DNA of 64,000 nt from Pirellulales bacterium (GCA_016931995.1 JAFGDS010000102.1:1-64000), one strand, 5' to 3'; positions 4,321-39,099 are shown, counted from the stretch's first letter. Numbers and translations are program-made. The notes: a model not told the origin generated them from the sequence alone.

Positions 4321-5223
4321 TCAATTGTGAAGCGTGCCCGCGTTGATCACCGGCTGGACTTCGGTTTCGGCGCAGAGGACGACCAGCAGGTTGCTGACCA
4401 TCGCGGCCTTGCGTTCCTCGTCCAGCTCGACGACCTGTTTCTCGGCCAGACCTTCCAAAGCCATTTGGACCATGCTGACGGCGCCGTGGACGATCCGCTG
4501 CCGGGCGTCGATGATTGCCTCGGCCTGTTGGCGGCGTAGCATCGCGCCGGCGATTTCCGGGGCGTAGGCCAGATGGGTCAGCCGAGCCTCCTCGACCGTC
4601 ACGCCCGCCTTGCCGACGCGGTCCTGCAACTCTCTCTGCAGGGCCGACGACACCTCATCCACGCCGCTTCGTAGGGTGATCTCGTTTTCCTCGCCGTGGT
4701 CGTAGGCGTACTGGTTGGCCAGATGGCGGATGGCCGACTCGCTTTGCACCTCGACGTAGTTCTCGTAGTTGTCCACGTCAAAACACGCCTGGGCCGTGTC
4801 TTCCACGCGCCAGACAATGACGGCGGCGATCTCGATGGGGTTACCCCGCTTGTCGTTCACCTTGAGCTTCTCGCTGTTGAAGTTCCGCACGCGGAGCGAG
4901 ATCCGCTGCTTGGTGTTGAACGGATTGGTCCAGTGCCAGCCCGGCTTGCGGACCGTCCCGCGGTAGGCGCCGAAGAGGATCAGCACGCGGCCCTCGTTCG
5001 GCTGTAGCGTGAAGTAGCCCGGCAGGGTGAACGCGAATCCCAAGATCACCAACACGGCGGCGCCCAGCAGGTAGAAGTTGGGCAACGCCCCACGATGATT
5101 GTCCGCTTCGATGGCCGACATGATGAAGAACACCACCAGTGCGACGGCGGCCGCCAGAAGCCCGACCGTCACCGGCAGAATCGCCCAACCGCTGGCCACA
5201 TGAATCCCACGTTCTTGATTCAT
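4321..5223 (-). CDS. SPFH/band-7 (stomatin/prohibitin-like) membrane protein
   Basis: Internal Met (MNQERG..) preceded by an AGGAGG-like RBS. One N-terminal TM helix, then an SPFH-like core ([52 protein letters not shown]). The upstream part of the ORF-track 422-aa reading runs through repeat elements and is rejected. Confidence 0.75.
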
Positions 5224-12570: not shown

Positions 12571-12652
12571 CGGAGGGCATGGGAGTCGAACCCACAACCG
12601 GTTACCCGGCACCTGATTTCGAGTCAGGCCGCTAGCCATTCGCTTACCCTCC
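12571..12652 (-). tRNA. tRNA-Ser (anticodon CGA), class II long variable arm, CCA not encoded
   Basis: Hand fold: acceptor GGAGGGU/GCCCUCC; anticodon stem CCUGA/UCAGG with loop CUCGAAA; variable-arm hairpin CCGG-GUAA-CCGG; T-arm GUGGG-UUCGACU-CCCAU. D-arm pairing is imperfect, so the isotype call is moderate. tRNA-Sec rejected (anticodon is not UCA). Confidence 0.65.
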
Positions 12653-15743: not shown

Positions 15744-16439
15744 TTACTCCTCTGTTCGCGTCTTTGTAAGCGCCGAGGCGAACAGTCCAGCCGGAACCGC
15801 AATAACGCCAATACCCACCAACAATACGACGGCTGTGAACACTCGCCCTCCAACCGTCACCGGGTAAACGTCGCCGTAGCCCACGGTCGTCAACGTTACG
15901 ATCGCCCACCAGAAGCAATGGAACACCGAGCCGAACGCCTCGGGTTGCGCTTCGCCCTCAAAATAGTAGATGCCGACCGAGGAAAGAAACACCAAGACGG
16001 CGGTGGCAATGACGTATAAGACCAGTTCCTCGCGGATCTCGACCCAGGCCAATCGAAACCGCCGGATGGCCGCGCTGTAGCGGCCGAACTTCAACACGCG
16101 GATGACTCGAAACACTCGCACGGCGCGGACGCCGCGAAGGTCCACTCCCGTCGAAATGTAAAAAGGAGCGATAGCCAGAAGATCCACAAGACCGTAGAAA
16201 CTGAAGATGAATCGCAGGCGGTTGTCCGCCACTAGAATCCGCAGGCCGTACTCGATTGTGAACAGGGCGACTGTTACGACTTCGGCCACGTAGAGCCAGA
16301 ATTGCGATTCCCTACTCAAACCCGGCAAGGTCTCGATGGAGAAGGTCACCAGTGAGAAGAGTATCAACCCCTCGATGGCCAGGTCAAAGATCCGCCCGGG
16401 CCACGTGTCCGTGTCCTCAACCAGTTGTTTGAGCGTCAT
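15744..16439 (-). CDS. Voltage-gated potassium channel (Kv-like, 6TM with TVGYGD filter)
   Basis: S4-like RAVRVFRVIRVLKFGR Arg-repeat segment. Pore helix plus selectivity filter TVGYGD. Lies in a lower-GC patch (about 55%). Confidence 0.9.
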   Translation of the reverse strand: MTLKQLVEDTDTWPGRIFDLAIEGLILFSLVTFSIETLPGLSRESQFWLYVAEVVTVALFTIEYGLRILVADNRLRFIFSFYGLVDLLAIAPFYISTGVDLRGVRAVRVFRVIRVLKFGRYSAAIRRFRLAWVEIREELVLYVIATAVLVFLSSVGIYYFEGEAQPEAFGSVFHCFWWAIVTLTTVGYGDVYPVTVGGRVFTAVVLLVGIGVIAVPAGLFASALTKTRTEE

Positions 16440-16511: not shown

Positions 16512-16740
16512 TTGCCGCCCCAGCTTCCGCTGCCTGCCGGACCTCGATAGGGGCACTCCTAACTTTCTCGATATCTTTCCCTTCACCGCCGACAAGCCGC
16601 TTGCCCGTTTCCAGGAGAACGAAAATCCAAAGTTCCTGCGTTTTCCCACGGGTCTTACTCCTTTTTTGGTTCCATCCGACACAAGAATGCGCGGGGGCTC
16701 TGCCCCCGGACCCCCGGGATTTTCGCAGGCATGACTCCGG

Positions 16741-16818
16741 TGTCCAATGGTGCTTGCATCCAAGGGGACAGTCCCATTTTCACTGAACAAAATTTGGGAC
16801 AGTCTCCATTGGACACCG
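16741..16818. promoter_or_regulatory. Symmetric motif block: TGTCCAATGG - GGGGACAGTCCC ATTTTCACTGAACAAAAT GGGACAGTCTCC - CCATTGGACA (two GGGAC-N-GTCCC palindromic cores plus an outer inverted repeat)
   Basis: Seen directly, about 330 bp upstream of the K+ channel start on the minus strand. A related pair sits at 28333-28384. Confidence 0.45.
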
Positions 16819-17038
16819 GAGCCATGCCTCAAAAAATCTTGCGGCGAAGCCGCACCGACATAGCGACCTGTGACGGCGCACCCTTCCGCCGGATGAACCG
16901 CTCTTTTTTGCCTTGGCAACGCGATCTGCCGTGCGAGCTCCGGCGTCGCGTTGTCCCGTGTCGCGACCCTGGCTTGCCGCTTGGCGTTTCCGCGTCTGCC
17001 AAAAATGTTGGATGGCCCCGCCCACCCTGCGGTTGAGG

Positions 17039-18118
17039 TCAATCATGGTAGGAAACCGTGGTTCTCCCGAAGAGGTCGGCGTTGGCGTTCTCCAGTGCTT
17101 GACGCGCGATCGCGATATACTCGGGGTCGATCTCGCAGCCCACGCTGTTGCGTCCGTGGCGCATCGCGGCGAGCGTCGTGGTGCCGGTGCCCACGAAGGG
17201 ATCGAGCACCGTGTCGCCGACGAAGCTGAACATCTGGACGAGGCGGCTGGCCAGTTCCAGCGGGAAAGGGGCGGGATGGCGCCGCGTTGAGGCGCCCGTC
17301 AACCCGGTCCAAATCTGCTGAAACCACTTCTGGTGGTTCTCGGCGGAGATGACGCTTAGGATGCGAGCCGCGGCGCTCGGCTTGCGATAGCCGCCTGGCT
17401 TGCGTTCCATGAGAATGAACTCGACGTCGTTTTTGACCACCGCGTTGGGCTCGTAGGGCTTTCCCAGAAACGACGAGCCGTTCTCGACCTCGTACGCCGC
17501 GTTGGCGATCTTGTGCCAGATAATCGGAGCGAGATTGTCGTAGCCAATGGTTTGACAGCGCTCCTGGATGGAAGCATGGAGCGGAACGACCGTGTGCCTG
17601 CCTTTGTTCTTGCGGCGCGACAGGCAGACGTCGCCCACCACGCAGATCAGCCTTCCGCCCGGCACGAGCGCGTCGAAACACCGCTGCCAGACCTTGTCGA
17701 GCTCATCGAGGAACACCTTATAGTCCTCGACGTGGCCGAGTTGCCCTTGTGTGTCACGATACTCCTTGAGCGTCCAATAAGGCGGGGAGGTCACCACCAG
17801 GTGGATCGATTCGGGCGCAAGCGCCAGGGCGCGAGCATCCATCAGACGCAGCTCGTGCGACGTGGGTATCTCTTGAATCGCCGCCTGAATGAGACCAAGC
17901 CGCCGCGGATCCTTCGCGAGGGAAGGAATCGCCGTCCGCGGGTCCGTCACCGCCCGAAGGGACGGTGGCACGAACTCGTCCAACCCAAGACGCGGGTTCC
18001 GTACAGCGGAGGTCGTCACGACATTCCCGACCGTGAGGGCGCCAACAGGAAACCCGCATTGTACAGGTGAACACACGGAGAATCGAGCGGACGGGGAATT
18101 GGGTGATAAGATGCGCAA
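17039..18118 (-). CDS. Beta-class N6-adenine/N4-cytosine DNA methyltransferase, apparently orphan
   Basis: Motif IV TSPPYW precedes motif I LDPFVGTGTT (beta permutation). No restriction endonuclease candidate adjacent. The true start may be downstream of the first ATG. Confidence 0.85.
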   Translation of the reverse strand: MRILSPNSPSARFSVCSPVQCGFPVGALTVGNVVTTSAVRNPRLGLDEFVPPSLRAVTDPRTAIPSLAKDPRRLGLIQAAIQEIPTSHELRLMDARALALAPESIHLVVTSPPYWTLKEYRDTQGQLGHVEDYKVFLDELDKVWQRCFDALVPGGRLICVVGDVCLSRRKNKGRHTVVPLHASIQERCQTIGYDNLAPIIWHKIANAAYEVENGSSFLGKPYEPNAVVKNDVEFILMERKPGGYRKPSAAARILSVISAENHQKWFQQIWTGLTGASTRRHPAPFPLELASRLVQMFSFVGDTVLDPFVGTGTTTLAAMRHGRNSVGCEIDPEYIAIARQALENANADLFGRTTVSYHD

Positions 18119-18681: not shown

Positions 18682-19209
18682 GGACCTGCTTTGATTAGGG
18701 GTGCTGCCGCGAGGCACGCCAGCCGTGGCACGCGTGTTGCATGGGGTCGTCTGGTGCTAGCATAGCGCGGCTTTGCGCGGAATTCTCCGCAATTCGCCGT
18801 CATTTTTCCCGCAAGCGCGCGCCGCTACTTGACAAAGGGCCGCGAAGTCGGACAATGAGGCCCATGCCGAGCGAATCGAGGCGCGTCGAGAGCGCTGGGC
18901 AAGGGCATTGCCGTTCGGGCAATGCTCAAGTCGCGTCGCGGCGAGTTGTCCGACCTCGTGGAGATGCTGCCCGTCGCCGCGGGCGCGATGCTTGACACGG
19001 TTGTTGGGCGCGAGTGGTCTGGCTGCGGTCAGGCTGGAGTGGACCCACGGAAATGGAATGAATCCGGGGGGGCGGCGACCGTAGGATCGATAGTCGGCGG
19101 CGGAGGTCGCGGCCGGGAAGGCCCCCCCCCTCGGTATTTTGGTGGTCCTGATGCGCCGGCAACGGCGCGGTGCTTCCTCGTTCTCGCCGGTCAGGCTTCC
19201 TCTTCGACG

Positions 19210-20265
19210 ATGTCCATCTGCCTGATTGGTCTGGGCGCGAATCTGGGCGATCGTGTCCGAACGCTTCAGGCGGCCGTCGACTTGCTTGCGCATGAAGGGA
19301 GCGTGCGTCTTTTGGCCAAGAGTCGGTGGCACGAGACGCTGCCCGTCGGCGGCCCGCCCGGTCAGCCGCCCTATCTCAACGGCGCGGCGACCCTCGAGAC
19401 GACGTTGACGCCCGAGACGCTTCTGGAACGCCTTCAGACAATCGAGCGGGCGTTGGGCCGCGCGCGGGGGCGGCGATGGGGCCCCCGAACCATCGACCTC
19501 GACTTGTTGCTCCACGGCGAAGAGGTCCTCGACTCGCCGCGTTTGACGGTGCCGCACCCACGGATGGCGTGGCGGCGATTCGTGCTCGCGCCGGCGGCGG
19601 AGGTGGCCGCGTCGATGGTCCACCCGACGACCAGTTGGACCATCGGCCGGTTGCTTGCGCATTTGGACGCGGGGCCAGACTACGTCGCGATTGCCGGCGG
19701 GATCGGGGCGGGCAAGACCTCGCTGGCCCGGCGGCTCGCGCGGGCGTGCCGGGCGCGACTCGTCGCCGAGCGGCTCGACCTGCGCGGCCTGGGCGCCTTC
19801 TACGCCGATCCGTCTAGCCACGCTTGGGCGACGGAGTTACAATTCCTGAGCCAGCGTGCCGGGTGGCTGGCGGGCGACGATGCGGCCTGGTCGGACGGGG
19901 CGTTGGCCGTGAGCGATTTTTGGCTGGATCAGTCGCGCGCGTTTGCGCGGGTGTGGCTGCGGCCGGAGCAGTTCGAGGCGTTCGAGGCCCGTTTCGAGCA
20001 GGTCCGAGGCGGTTCGGTCCGGCCGAAGCTCACGATCCTGTTGGACGTGTCGGCGGAGCGTCTTTTGGCGCGGATCCGCCGTCGCGGCCGGCCGCAAGAA
20101 CGCCCGTTGGACGAAGCCCGCGTGGGCCAGATTGCCCAGGGTATTGCCGAGGCGACCCGCGGGCCCGACGTGGGCCCCGTTCTTCGTCTGACCGACCCAA
20201 CGCCCCGCGAGGCGCTCCGCGAAGCCACGGCCGCCGTCGCGGCGATGACCGCGCGGTCGCGTTGA
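19210..20265 (+). CDS. folK: HPPK (FolK) fused to a C-terminal deoxynucleoside-kinase-like P-loop domain
   Basis: FolK part: ICLIGLGANLGDR .. ETLPVGG..QPPYLN .. RWGPRTIDLDLLLHG .. PHPRM. C-terminal part: AIAGGIGAGKTS (P-loop), AFYADPSSHAWATELQFLSQR, ERLLARIRRRGRPQE (dNK-family signatures). Start taken at MSICLIG; the upstream part of the ORF is rejected. Confidence 0.8.
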   Translation: MSICLIGLGANLGDRVRTLQAAVDLLAHEGSVRLLAKSRWHETLPVGGPPGQPPYLNGAATLETTLTPETLLERLQTIERALGRARGRRWGPRTIDLDLLLHGEEVLDSPRLTVPHPRMAWRRFVLAPAAEVAASMVHPTTSWTIGRLLAHLDAGPDYVAIAGGIGAGKTSLARRLARACRARLVAERLDLRGLGAFYADPSSHAWATELQFLSQRAGWLAGDDAAWSDGALAVSDFWLDQSRAFARVWLRPEQFEAFEARFEQVRGGSVRPKLTILLDVSAERLLARIRRRGRPQERPLDEARVGQIAQGIAEATRGPDVGPVLRLTDPTPREALREATAAVAAMTARSR

Positions 20266-20432: not shown

Positions 20433-21293
20433 ATGATGGATCCCCCACGAGTCATCACGACGCTTGACGACCTCCGCGCGGCGGTGGGACCGCTGCGGCG
20501 CGCGGGTTGGCGGGTGGGCGTCGTGCCGACGATGGGGGCGCTGCACGAGGGCCACTTGAGCCTGGTCCACGCGTCGCGGGCCGAGTGCGATTTCACCGTC
20601 GCGTGGATCTTCGTCAATCCAAGTCAGTTTGGTCCCGGCGAGGATTATGCCCGGTATCCCCGCGACCTCCAAGCGGATCTCGACAAGCTGGCCGCCTGCG
20701 GCGTGGAGCTGGTCTTCGCGCCGGCGGAGGGCGAGGTGTACGGGCCGGAACATGACACCTGGGTTGAACCGGGCGCGGTCGCCGGGCCGCTGGAGGGCGA
20801 GCACCGGCCGGGGCATTTCCGCGGCGTGGCGACGATCGTGCTCAAGCTGTTCAACATGATCGCGCCGGACGCGGCGTATTTCGGGCAAAAGGACTACCAG
20901 CAGGCCCTGGTGATCCGGCGGATGACCGCCGATCTCGACCTGCCCATCGAAATCCGTGTCTGCCCGATCGTCCGCGAGTCCGACGGCCTGGCCATGAGCT
21001 CGCGCAACGCCTACCTGAGCCCCGCGGCGCGACGACGGGCGACCGTGCTGTGGAAGAGCTTGTGCCTGGCGAAGGAGCTTGTGGCCGGCGGCGAGCGCGG
21101 GGCCGAGACCATCGCCCGGCGGATGCGCGAGGTGATCCTGTCGGCCGAGGACGCGCGGATCGACTACGTCGCCCTGGTCGATCCGGAAACGCTTCAGCAG
21201 GTCGAGCGGGTGGACCGCCCGACGCTGGCGGCCCTGGCCGTGCGGATCGAGAACACGCGGTTGATCGACAACTGCATATTGACGGTGGAATGA
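20433..21293 (+). CDS. panC: Pantoate--beta-alanine ligase
   Basis: PTMGALHEGHLSL, FGQKDYQQ, MSSRN motifs. Start at MMDPPR; the upstream part of the ORF is rejected. Confidence 0.9.
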   Translation: MMDPPRVITTLDDLRAAVGPLRRAGWRVGVVPTMGALHEGHLSLVHASRAECDFTVAWIFVNPSQFGPGEDYARYPRDLQADLDKLAACGVELVFAPAEGEVYGPEHDTWVEPGAVAGPLEGEHRPGHFRGVATIVLKLFNMIAPDAAYFGQKDYQQALVIRRMTADLDLPIEIRVCPIVRESDGLAMSSRNAYLSPAARRRATVLWKSLCLAKELVAGGERGAETIARRMREVILSAEDARIDYVALVDPETLQQVERVDRPTLAALAVRIENTRLIDNCILTVE

Positions 21294-22576
21294 CTTGGAG
21301 CCGCGCCGTGTGTCGAACGCTTTTTCACATCCCCAACGAGATCGCCGGCGTCGGCGTGTTCGGCGTCGGGTGGTTGTTGGGGCTTTGGGTGATTGTGGGC
21401 ATCGTCATACTCGCGTGGGTGGGACGAAAGGAAGGCTTGGGGCGGGAGTGGTTCGGCTACCTCCCACTGCTGGCGATCGTTGCCGCGGCCATCGTCTGGG
21501 TGCTGCCCGCCGTCTGCGATAAGGAGGGGCTCCCCATCCGCGGCTACGGCACGATGATGCTCGTGGCCGTGGCGTCGGGCACGGGCTTGTTCGTCTGGCG
21601 GATGGCGCGCGTCGGCGTGGAACCCGATCTGACGCTCTCGATGGTCTTTTGGATGTTCCTGGGGGGCATCCTCGGCGCCCGGGCGTTCTACGTGATCGAA
21701 TACTGGTCCGATTTCCACAAGCCCACGCTGGGGGCGACGCTGGCCGCCGTGGCCAACATCACGCTGGGCGGGTTGGTCGTCTACGGGTCGCTCCTCGGCG
21801 GGCTGGCGGCCATGTTCATTTTCCTCCGCGCGCGCCGGCTGCCGGCTCTGGTCGTCTGCGATCGGCTCGCGCCGTGCCTGGTGTTGGGGCTGGCCATCGG
21901 CCGGGTCGGATGCCTGATGAACGGGTGCTGCTTCGGCGGACCGTGCGACCACGCCTGGGCTCTGCGCTTTCCGCCCGACAGCCAGGTGTACGAGAGCCAG
22001 GCAAGCGGCGGCCTCTTCCACGGCATGAAGCTGGGCGAAGACGCCGGCGAGCCGACCACCGTCATCGAGATCGAGCCCGACGGACCGGCCGCCCGCGCCG
22101 GCTTGCGTCCGGGCGACCGGATCGTCGGCGTCGAGGGACGCCCGGTGGAATCGGCGCGGGATCTCCGTTCGGCTCTGCTTTTGGCGTATTTTGAGGAACG
22201 GCCGTTGGCCCTGCGCACCGCCGGCGGCCGGGACGCGCAAATGGCGGCCGTGCCGATCGCGCCGCGGAGCCTCCCCGTGACGCCGACGCAGCCGCTGGCG
22301 ACGATCAACGCCCTGGCGATCATGCTGTTTCTGCTGGCGTGCGAGCCCTTTTGCCGCCGCGACGGCCAACTGTTCGCCATCTTGCTGACGCTTTACCCCA
22401 TCACGCGGTTCATCCTCGAGATCATCCGCACGGACGAGCACGCGGTGTTCGACACGAGCCTGAGCATCTCGCAGAACGTAAGCATCTTGGTGCTCGTGGG
22501 CATCGTCGTCTTCTGGATCTTCGTCTTTCGCCAGCCGGCGCGACCGTTTCGAGATCCTTCGCTGCGCTCAGGATGA
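21290..22576 (+). CDS. lgt: Prolipoprotein diacylglyceryl transferase with an inserted PDZ-like domain
   Basis: ATGA overlap with the panC stop. GRVGCLMNGCC and YPITRFILEIIRTDE Lgt-type motifs, multiple TM helices. Insert GLRPGDRIVGVEGRPVESARDL resembles a PDZ core. 3' end runs into a family A repeat. Confidence 0.8.
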   Translation: MTWSRAVCRTLFHIPNEIAGVGVFGVGWLLGLWVIVGIVILAWVGRKEGLGREWFGYLPLLAIVAAAIVWVLPAVCDKEGLPIRGYGTMMLVAVASGTGLFVWRMARVGVEPDLTLSMVFWMFLGGILGARAFYVIEYWSDFHKPTLGATLAAVANITLGGLVVYGSLLGGLAAMFIFLRARRLPALVVCDRLAPCLVLGLAIGRVGCLMNGCCFGGPCDHAWALRFPPDSQVYESQASGGLFHGMKLGEDAGEPTTVIEIEPDGPAARAGLRPGDRIVGVEGRPVESARDLRSALLLAYFEERPLALRTAGGRDAQMAAVPIAPRSLPVTPTQPLATINALAIMLFLLACEPFCRRDGQLFAILLTLYPITRFILEIIRTDEHAVFDTSLSISQNVSILVLVGIVVFWIFVFRQPARPFRDPSLRSG

Positions 22577-28251: not shown

Positions 28252-28332
28252 CGGAGCGTTTCCTCGTTGACGGACCGCGCGGGGGGGCCGGTTGCGATCG
28301 CGGCGCCCCCCCAGTGTCACAAGACGCTGCTT

Positions 28333-28384
28333 CGGGGACTGTCCCGATTTTTGTGGCAGGAGGCCACGATAATGGGACTGTCCC
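28333..28384. promoter_or_regulatory. Second pair of GGGAC-T-GTCCC palindromic cores (GGGGACTGTCCCGATTTTTGTGG .. GGGACTGTCCCC), about 100 bp upstream of trmB
   Basis: Seen directly. First core plus following ATTTT shares about 20 of 23 positions with the 16764 site. Spacer contains the small inverted repeat TGTGGC..GCCACG. Confidence 0.45.
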
Positions 28385-28434
28385 CTTCTGGGTGACCTGT
28401 TTTCCGGGTTCCGCGCCTGGTAGGCTGGAAGGGA

Positions 28435-38768: not shown

Positions 38769-39099
38769 GATCGTTTCCCATAGCAGTGGGGTGGTCGTCG
38801 TGACGGAGAGAGACCCTGCCGATGCCCCGGAGTCTCGCCTGGGCGAGCTGGCACGCGGCGCCGGCCTGTATTGTGGGCCACCCGGGCGAAGTGGACAAGG
38901 GGACGCCCCCGGAGCCCCCCGCTGGCAAACGCCGGGGGGCTGTACGGAATTGCGTGACAAGCAATGTGGCACGGCCATCCTGGCCGTGTTTCACATAAAC
39001 TCACACTGGCCCACTGCCGGGATCATCGGTGCGGAAGGGGATCGGGACGGTCCCCCGGCGCGGAAATTGATCCCGTCCCCCCGTTTGCCAGGCCGCTGT

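Follow-up and report, generated by a model that had tools for sequence, protein, structure and literature searches.

Rickettsia palindromic elements (RPEs) are palindromic repeats found between genes and also, in frame, within unrelated metabolic genes, whose products gain the translated repeat as an additional peptide segment (PMC10969869, a review citing Ogata 2000 and 2002). [quoted passage not shown] Repetitive extragenic palindromic sequences (REPs) are reported in Planctomycetes and other deep-branching phyla (PMC3733652). The subject of this analysis is a nested hairpin (site 1, 16718-16838) and a smaller relative (site 2, 28334-28385) in a 64,000-nt stretch of DNA from the metagenome-assembled genome of a Pirellulales bacterium (GCA_016931995.1 JAFGDS010000102.1:1-64000), the whole of which is referred to as the window. 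The two sites are members of a dispersed hairpin family that shares a hairpin design and a conserved strand-specific mismatch. The motif at site 1 is probably a copy of a small non-coding hairpin repeat, a non-autonomous MITE- or RPE-like insertion element of a large dispersed family, and site 1 is an ordinary family member without demonstrated effect on its neighbours.

The initial annotation described site 1 as a composite motif with two GGGAC-N-GTCCC palindromes, a central ATTTT..AAAAT inverted repeat, and an outer 10-bp inverted repeat, located about 330 bp upstream of the start of a K+ channel gene in AT-rich non-coding DNA. The two palindromes (the second with one mismatch), the central repeat, the distance, and the setting are all borne out. 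The outer repeat is also present, but its length was understated, as its arms span 33 nt. The features of the two sites are as follows:

16718-16838, minus strand: site 1, whole nested hairpin element, 121 nt (inverted-repeat search, folds, and covariance model)
16718-16750, no strand assigned: outer left arm of site 1, 33 nt (inverted-repeat search)
16751-16763, no strand assigned: one-sided unpaired 13-nt stretch TGCTTGCATCCAA from the outer arm to the first core (sequence and fold)
16764-16775, no strand assigned: core copy 1, GGGGACAGTCCC (exact match)
16776-16795, no strand assigned: inner stem-loop ATTTT-CACTGAACA-AAAAT-TT (alignment A2 of family members)
16796-16807, no strand assigned: core copy 2, GGGACAGTCTCC, differing by one mismatch from the consensus and from the first core (pattern and inverted-repeat search)
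16806-16838, no strand assigned: outer right arm of site 1, 33 nt (inverted-repeat search)
28334-28385, plus strand: site 2, inner module without outer arms, 52 nt, GGGGACTGTCCC / GATTTTTGTGGCAGGAGGCCACGATAAT / GGGACTGTCCCC (repeat and fold, covariance model)
28334-28345 and 28374-28385, plus strand: GGGGACTGTCCC and GGGACTGTCCCC of site 2, on either side of a 28-nt stem-loop

Site 1 is assigned to the minus strand, on which both core centres are T and which is also the sense strand of both flanking genes. Its core and stem-loop unit is flanked on the outside by TGTCCAATGG and CCATTGGACA, the window cores pair over 11 of 12 positions, and the outer arms (16718-16750 and 16806-16838) are 88% complementary in the inverted-repeat search. 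Read on the strand with T at the core centres (the T strand), TGCTTGCATCCAA is CTTGGATGCAAGCA, which starts with the CTTgg tail found after the second core in other family members. The fold of site 1 stands apart from its shuffles (z = -6.4 on the plus strand and -7.9 on the minus strand, with none of 200 shuffles equalling it), and the family covariance model matches 16759-16812 on the minus strand with 58.9 bits. The element has a GC content of 0.50 against 0.66 across the window and sits in a 600-nt gap between genes. A 199-aa open reading frame (ORF) that crosses it has flat GC over the three codon positions (GC1/2/3 = 0.57/0.57/0.62), and the ORFs that overlap it share this flat pattern; the region is non-coding. 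Site 1 lies about 280-325 nt upstream of the K+ channel start at 16439, with the inner module at ~325 nt, and the stop codon of a DNA methyltransferase gene (17039-18118, minus strand; identified with Pfam) is ~200 nt upstream of site 1.

The second site, initially recorded as a core plus tail upstream of trmB, is real and fuller than that description, as it holds a complete module. The covariance model matches it at 28329-28390 on the plus strand with 62.3 bits. The plus strand is both the T strand of site 2 and the sense strand of the two genes beside it, and the site is located 82 nt past the stop codon of a TonB-dependent receptor gene and 49 nt ahead of trmB. The 17-mer AATGGGACTGTCCCCTT is present exactly in both sites (minus strand in site 1, plus strand in site 2), compared to 0.15 expected matches with three or fewer mismatches. 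Exact GGGACWGTCCC occurs three times in the window versus 0.02 expected, which is not chance. Across the 64 kb, the covariance model of the module recovers two copies only, site 1 and site 2. A solitary palindrome with centre G (GGGACGGTCCC, 39044-39054) reaches only 8.9 bits with the same model and may be a chance match or a decayed half-element.

Beyond the window, the same design recurs in many genomes. A genome scan of one genome per species, which required two cores 12-42 nt apart, returned at least 119 loci. A metagenome scan, in which only the first (5') core and RATTTTSS were fixed and the 3' core was left unconstrained, returned at least 120 loci. Among the matches listed, loci with the window design come mostly from Planctomycetaceae, Pirellulales, Thermoguttaceae, or Planctomycetia genomes. 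The window-type design consists of a core, (A/G)ATTTT, a variable self-complementary apex, AAAAT, the second core, and C-TT. Twenty window-type copies align cleanly in alignment A2, and alignment A2 and model R1 both capture the module; standard pairs fill 97.6% of its cells, and three upper-stem pairs covary through compensatory changes. The A/T stem base is conserved and the apex is variable across family members. The conserved stem unit is built from paired cores with a central T·T mismatch, a 1-nt bulge, the ATTTT/AAAAT base, and the variable apex. In the metagenome copies, the cores are separated by a spacer of 13 to 59 nt whose modes fall at 20, 27, and 56-57, with no helical phasing. 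For the family, the distance from one core to the other is put at about 30-70 nt.

The centre of the cores sets this design apart from a simple palindrome. When one arm of a hairpin contains a palindrome, the opposite arm necessarily contains it too, and there the complementary centre base is expected. In the metagenome sample, where the partner core was unconstrained, 107 of 123 copies have it as an exact GGGACTGTCCC, and its centre is T in 118 of 123 and the pair-closing A in only 2. Because the centres are the same letter and non-complementary, the cores are direct copies and not a plain inverted repeat. The centre mismatch is T·T on the T strand and A·A on the opposite strand. Where the partner core has changed, G·T pairing on the T strand is mostly retained (A-to-G in 4 sequences and C-to-T in 2, against T-to-C in 1), which may be taken as a weak sign that folding takes place on the T strand.

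Additional layers of symmetry enclose part of the family. Further complementary arms of at least 7 nt surround the module in 24 of 120 planctomycete-type copies (7.3 expected), and arms of at least 10 nt surround 9 of 120 (0.5 expected). The 33-nt arms of site 1 are a member of this extra-layer class. They were also considered as a repeat family of their own, and this was rejected, with no other occurrence in 2.3 Mb of related loci. One 4.5-kb contig (L086) holds up to seven model matches at E ≤ 1e-4, degenerate and composite copies included, in mosaic arrangements that resemble bacterial interspersed mosaic elements (BIMEs).

Sister subfamilies are found in viral contigs. The two-core pattern occurs in 71 viral stretches versus 1, 21, 15, 8, and 4 for five palindromes of the same composition, and the matches to these control palindromes are perfect terminator-like hairpins, tandem repeats, or coding repeats, none of which has the family design. 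Viral copies again favour same-letter centres (72 versus 18). One viral subfamily has the inner arms AGAATTACGG...CCGTAGATTC (TACGG/CCGTAG type), with compensatory variants, and another has the inner arms AGGAATTTTCG...CGAAAACCC; the planctomycete ATTTT type is also present among viral-contig copies. The TACGG type extends to Nitrospirae and Thermodesulfovibrionales genomes (L012, L031), and a CTGTGAG...GGATTACAG viral subfamily is shared with a Prevotella genome. Recognisable Mu-like genes accompany 17 of the 71 viral loci and none of 22 control loci. In cultured-phage records, neither subfamily consensus was matched. Mimicry of Mu ends was not supported, as the cores are always paired inside phage loci and the inferred termini are not TG...CA.

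The bare palindrome is not a cross-phylum universal. Many of its non-planctomycete matches are perfect terminator-like hairpins or tandem arrays, and the control palindromes behave alike; generic matches, including those in Bacillus, Lachnospiraceae, Coriobacteriia, and Sphingomonadales, were not counted as family members. Several loci in other phyla (L118, L036, L033, L066, L002/L023) contain tandem 25-30-nt units with one GGGACWGTCCC core each, an iteron-like arrangement that may be unrelated. In Bacillus-type loci (L069, L094, L119), the core is at the tip of long perfect hairpins, AAAGCACTAAGA-GGGACTGTCCC-TCTTAGTGCTTT, beside a TTAACGCGTTAA motif, and these look like members of a distinct repeat family in which this palindrome also serves. 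A literature search for the literal core returned eukaryotic primers and similar entries only, with no bacterial context. Literature on Planctomycetes REPs and MITEs, phage MITEs, and coding palindromes yielded no description of the element, although access was incomplete and an earlier description is possible. The family is apparently undescribed, and it is a large one, with DNA insertions known from the genomes of planctomycetes and other bacteria and from Mu-like phages.

In the family, each insertion adds a discrete block bounded by a short duplication. In the gene for the Mu-like transposase MuA, one phage locus (L134) carries exactly 60 nt that are absent from another (L129), with flanks ~90% identical; the insert is bounded by TTGATA...TTGATG, which corresponds to a duplication of 5-6 nt. 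A second filled/empty pair involves the window's own subfamily and a UbiE/MenG gene, in which L018 carries exactly 99 nt that are absent from its orthologue L364 and are bounded on both sides by CCGCGCCGG(GG), a duplication of 9-11 nt. At the protein level, four near-identical UbiE/MenG sequences share a 33-residue insert that is absent in five orthologues 74-85% identical to the query (A3). The L018 insertion is composite (1659-1693): a full module is followed by CTTTGGTTCACACAGAAATC and a third core-like palindrome, GGGACGGTC, which is completed by the first bases of the duplicated target. Of 36 phage-type copies, 13 are flanked by direct repeats of 5 nt or more (4.4 expected) and 5 by direct repeats of 6 nt or more (1.1 expected). 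Junction BLAST of 220 elements returned one clean filled/empty pair and several pairs that were too diverged. The initial annotation had offered a small mobile palindromic element as its second reading. The filled/empty pairs, the phage-type flanking repeats, and the in-frame insertions described below sustain that reading for the family rather than for the window copies themselves.

Copies also persist in frame inside genes, and these in-gene insertions are recurrent and independent. Pfam-confirmed bacterial hosts of in-frame copies are UbiE/MenG, a MiaB-like radical-SAM enzyme, ThiE, and UbiD, and the phage hosts are GpA terminase, a T4-type terminase, Mu portal, GemA, and MuA-like transposases. 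The domain match of UbiE/MenG is split at the insert, and 15 extra residues of ThiE are the element. The GemA copy is located inside the domain, the GpA terminase ATPase has 38 extra residues, and a terminase copy occupies the linker joining Terminase_6N to Terminase_6C. Of the 43 copies in phage contigs whose GC is below 0.57, 29 have an ORF running across them that is open for 50 codons or more to either side, compared to 61% of random positions. The reading frame is continuous through the elements at any core-to-core period modulo 3, so the elements are translated rather than bypassed; translational bypass and excision of in-gene copies are both ruled out by these continuous frames. Depending on frame and orientation, the core is translated as GTVP, GDSP, GQSP, GLSP, or DCP. 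The MuA genes of different phages have at least four insertion points in the N-terminal linker and one C-terminal point; at the latter, the copies of the related phages L172 and L129 face opposite ways and differ in their inner sequence. MuA-gene copies were seen in the Mu-like phage contigs L129, L132, L149, L171, L134, and L172, and L172 has a degenerate copy near 5095.

The position of planctomycete copies was classified for 66 ATTTT-type copies with a crude gene caller based on third-codon-position GC (GC3). Twenty lie between tandem genes, 18 inside genes, 8 between convergent genes, and 6 between divergent genes, while 14 are unclear. Tandem copies are usually located 12-100 nt past the upstream stop codon, with the T strand as the sense strand in 15 of 20, and both window copies follow this pattern. 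The tandem bias could reflect a preferred target, counter-selection at other positions, or a secondary function of the hairpin in RNA downstream of genes. An all-against-all comparison of ORFs within 2 kb of the motif at the 119 listed loci found no recurrent protein, and no Y1 transposase was noticed.

Taken as a mechanism, the element would enter a new site as a discrete block flanked by a short direct duplication and would survive where it is tolerated, mostly just downstream of planctomycete genes and also in in-frame protein loops or linkers. The form that moves or is recognised may be a single T-strand hairpin read by an enzyme acting in trans, and the element itself is presumably non-autonomous. 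The flanking duplications suggest staggered cuts of the sort that DDE-type enzymes make. The window copies probably arrived by the same insertion process and would be at most incidental hairpins in the transcripts of their flanking genes.

Several observations weigh against this account. Direct repeats immediately flanking planctomycete-type copies occur in 22 of 123 versus 15.9 expected, which is not significant, and neither window copy has a detectable flanking duplication. The window copies also have no empty-site counterpart among the sequences found, as identity to the nearest relative in the protein database reaches no more than 75%. The extra enclosing layers may partly explain the missing flank excess in planctomycete-type copies and the missing duplications in the window. 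The two validated duplications are unequal (5-6 nt versus 9-11 nt), which is unusual for a single transposase, and together with the strand-specific mismatch they do not fit one simple enzyme model. No mobilising enzyme was identified: none is encoded in the window, and no recurrent neighbour protein was found in the fetched loci, which are ~8 kb each. A candidate autonomous copy was sought as unpaired cores or long-range core pairs enclosing a gene and was rejected, as these gave degenerate partners only. The near-invariant cores, the T·T mismatch, the 12-100-nt position after stop codons, and the sense orientation of 15 of 20 tandem copies suggest selection beyond selfish spread, and these context statistics rest on the crude GC3-based gene calls.

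A wider grouping is put forward tentatively, with prospects a little short of even. Here the family would be a hitherto undescribed cross-phylum superfamily of ~45-100-nt hairpin transposable elements built from two direct copies of GGGACTGTCCC that pair with the T·T mismatch, and with inner arms that differ by lineage (ATTTT in Planctomycetota; TACGG/CCGTAG and AATTTTC in Mu-like phages and in what are probably their hosts; and a Prevotella type). Its members would have repeatedly invaded essential phage and housekeeping genes in frame and would be moved by an enzyme that reads the T-strand hairpin, and the window copies would be ordinary members.

An unlikely alternative account of the motif is that it is primarily an RNA hairpin with a function in the 3' untranslated region of the gene before it, as a transcript-end stabiliser, processing site, or weak terminator, and has spread by its usefulness, as has been suggested for REPs. 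This account would draw on the tandem copies at 12-100 nt past the stop codon with the T strand sense in 15 of 20, a pattern that the window copies fit, on the mostly G·T-preserving changes of the 3' core, and on the detection of each core plus ATTTT as terminator-like. REPs have likewise been proposed to serve in termination and mRNA stabilisation (PMC3733652). However, the full hairpin is not followed by a U run, the short hairpin of the core is weak, and two canonical terminator-like hairpins already lie ahead of site 1. Copies also reside in essential genes, in both mRNA orientations, where termination or cleavage would be harmful. An Rfam scan at gathering score recovered tRNAs alone in the window and nothing in 16 planctomycete loci, and a permissive scan of site 1 gave sub-threshold generic miRNA-hairpin matches only. 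The insertion polymorphisms are left unexplained by an RNA function, which is at most a secondary use; such a secondary role after genes is possible.

HUH enzymes read imperfect hairpins on one strand. In the subterminal hairpins of IS200/IS605 elements, which form the ends of TnpA/TnpB elements, one strand of a mismatched hairpin is recognised, and insertion takes place beside a fixed tetra- or pentanucleotide with no duplication. By analogy, the T·T mismatch described here would be a comparable strand-specific mark. A REP- or REPIN-type element that is moved as single-stranded DNA by a RAYT-like or IS200/IS605-like HUH (Y1) transposase reading this mismatch has only a slim chance of being the right description. 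The conserved mismatch, the similar hairpin design with BIME-like composites (L086), and the GTAG contained in the 'TACGG...CCGTAG' subfamily speak for it. With an HUH-type route the mismatch would make sense, but the duplications would not, as both validated insertions have direct duplications and IS200/IS605-type insertion makes none. Copies are not confined to extragenic DNA, and no Y1 transposase gene is present in the window or was noticed among recurrent neighbours at the 119 listed loci. The unpaired GTAG/CGTC tag by the stem, given as the defining mark of REPs (PMC3733652), is absent at the ends of the window copies. Their T-strand flanks are ...CCAATG / CTTGGA... and ...GCTTCG / CTTCTG..., and CGTC is found by the stem only in some other copies (L020, L025).

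The first reading of the initial annotation, an operator for a dimeric or tetrameric regulator, is not supported. In its fuller form, each palindrome of an operator or enhancer-like site would bind a dimeric factor, the pair would bind a tetramer or two dimers, and the site would control the K+ channel gene and trmB; this is very improbable. Perfect or near-perfect paired palindromes in non-coding DNA upstream of genes are what such a site would offer, and a LuxR/GerE-type response regulator is encoded in the window at 1600-2235. NarL-family proteins such as DosR bind GGGAC-containing palindromes, but the DosR box spaces its GGGAC and GTCCC halves by 4 nt, compared to 1 here. There is no link to the K+ channel gene: homologues of this channel (up to 75% identity) on four other contigs lie in unrelated neighbourhoods with no synteny, and the module is absent around them, with no model match. 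Nor does any neighbouring protein recur at the 119 listed loci. The spacer of 13-59 nt varies without helical phasing, and the sequence between the cores is always self-complementary and covarying, which an operator does not need. The T centres fall on the same strand in 118 of 123 copies, an asymmetry that is invisible to a symmetric dimer on duplex DNA, and some copies separate convergent genes or sit in frame within genes for housekeeping or for phage structure. Finally, a chance palindrome or generic GC-rich hairpin without family relationship can practically be dismissed: same-composition control palindromes also occur paired, as terminator-like hairpins or tandem repeats, and part of the cross-phylum match list is generic (perfect A-tract/T-tract hairpins and tandem arrays), but the three exact cores versus 0.02 expected, the whole module and 17-mer common to both sites, the covariance model, and the hundreds of copies elsewhere with the same design and non-complementary centre refute it.

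The immediate surroundings of site 1 contain further signals. Downstream of the methyltransferase gene, the minus strand has two canonical terminator-like hairpins with T runs, at 17010-17027 and about 16840-16857, and the T run of the second is the start of the site 1 outer arm, so that the element abuts a pre-existing terminator. Each outer arm also has an outward-facing sigma-70-like match, TGGACA-16-(G/A)AAAAT (2 versus 0.2 expected), located as follows:

16719-16746, minus strand: promoter-like match in the left outer arm, TGGACA-16-GAAAAT (consensus match only)
16810-16837, plus strand: promoter-like match in the right outer arm (consensus match only)

The minus-strand match is directed at the K+ channel gene and is likewise a consensus match only. 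Some MITEs are known as suppliers of outward promoters.

The gene content of the window consists of ordinary chromosomal genes, a DUF1559 protein among them, which fits a planctomycete origin, and no transposase, HUH enzyme, RAYT/Y1, or phage gene is encoded in the 64 kb. The K+ channel protein carries that name in its source record. The N6/N4 DNA methyltransferase gene directly upstream of site 1 (17039-18118, minus strand) has no restriction-enzyme domain in the scanned neighbouring ORFs. The ORF for Lgt (prolipoprotein diacylglyceryl transferase; 21050-22576, plus strand) contains a PDZ domain (residues ~325-379) within its LGT domain match (160-490), and the ORF at 18922-20265 (plus strand) combines an HPPK (folate synthesis) domain with a deoxynucleoside-kinase-like domain. 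A weak tRNA match beside uvrA (12571-12652, minus strand) scores 33.9 bits against a gathering score of 29, whereas the three other tRNAs in the window score 60-68 bits.

For the window, annotating the motif as a regulatory site, whether of the K+ channel gene or of trmB, would be misplaced. Annotation is affected in a second way, as gene callers can extend ORFs through the element, and its copies could seed metagenome mis-assemblies. In-gene copies serve as natural experiments on the tolerance of proteins to insertions. The mover, if identified, would be an enzyme with a very compact and well-defined DNA substrate.

The closest analogues of the family are RPEs, next bacterial MITEs including the Coxiella QMITEs (PMC5896051), and REP/BIME repeats. 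Like RPEs, the family is palindromic and non-autonomous, has no known transposase, and occurs as both intergenic and in-frame genic copies; in-frame insertion compatible with the host protein is found in the family, and the window copies are intergenic. RPEs are ~150 bp long, are reported from Rickettsia, and encode a conserved peptide. In contrast, the module described here is ~45-80 nt, is translated in several frames and in either orientation, keeps its 11-nt core invariant and in direct rather than inverted register, and is spread over several phyla and Mu-like phages. This separation from RPEs is drawn from their description.

MITEs such as Correia, RUP, and the Coxiella QMITEs share with the family a small size, inverted repeats, the lack of coding sequence, dispersed copies, and occasional in-frame genic insertions. 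Both window copies are within this range of features in size (52 nt for site 2 and 121 nt for site 1), terminal inverted repeats, and dispersed relatives; flanking duplications are seen in the two family members with empty-site counterparts and, as an enrichment, in the phage subfamilies, and none is detectable at the window copies. Unlike MITEs, no parent insertion sequence with matching ends was found for the family, which is much smaller than typical MITEs, its duplication length is inconstant, and its inverted repeats keep one non-complementary position. REPs, BIMEs, and REPINs are also short imperfect palindromes, often just downstream of genes and sometimes in larger mosaic hairpins. The present family differs from them in that it is not strictly extragenic, with 18 of 66 planctomycete-type copies inside called genes, and in that its insertions have flanking duplications and no linked RAYT gene.

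Among bacterial small repeats, the family is unusual in several ways. Its 11-nt core is near-invariant across distant lineages and their phages, and one position of its stem is kept non-complementary. It strikes the same genes, such as that of Mu transposase, repeatedly, and it is small and stop-free enough to persist in essential genes as linker peptides.

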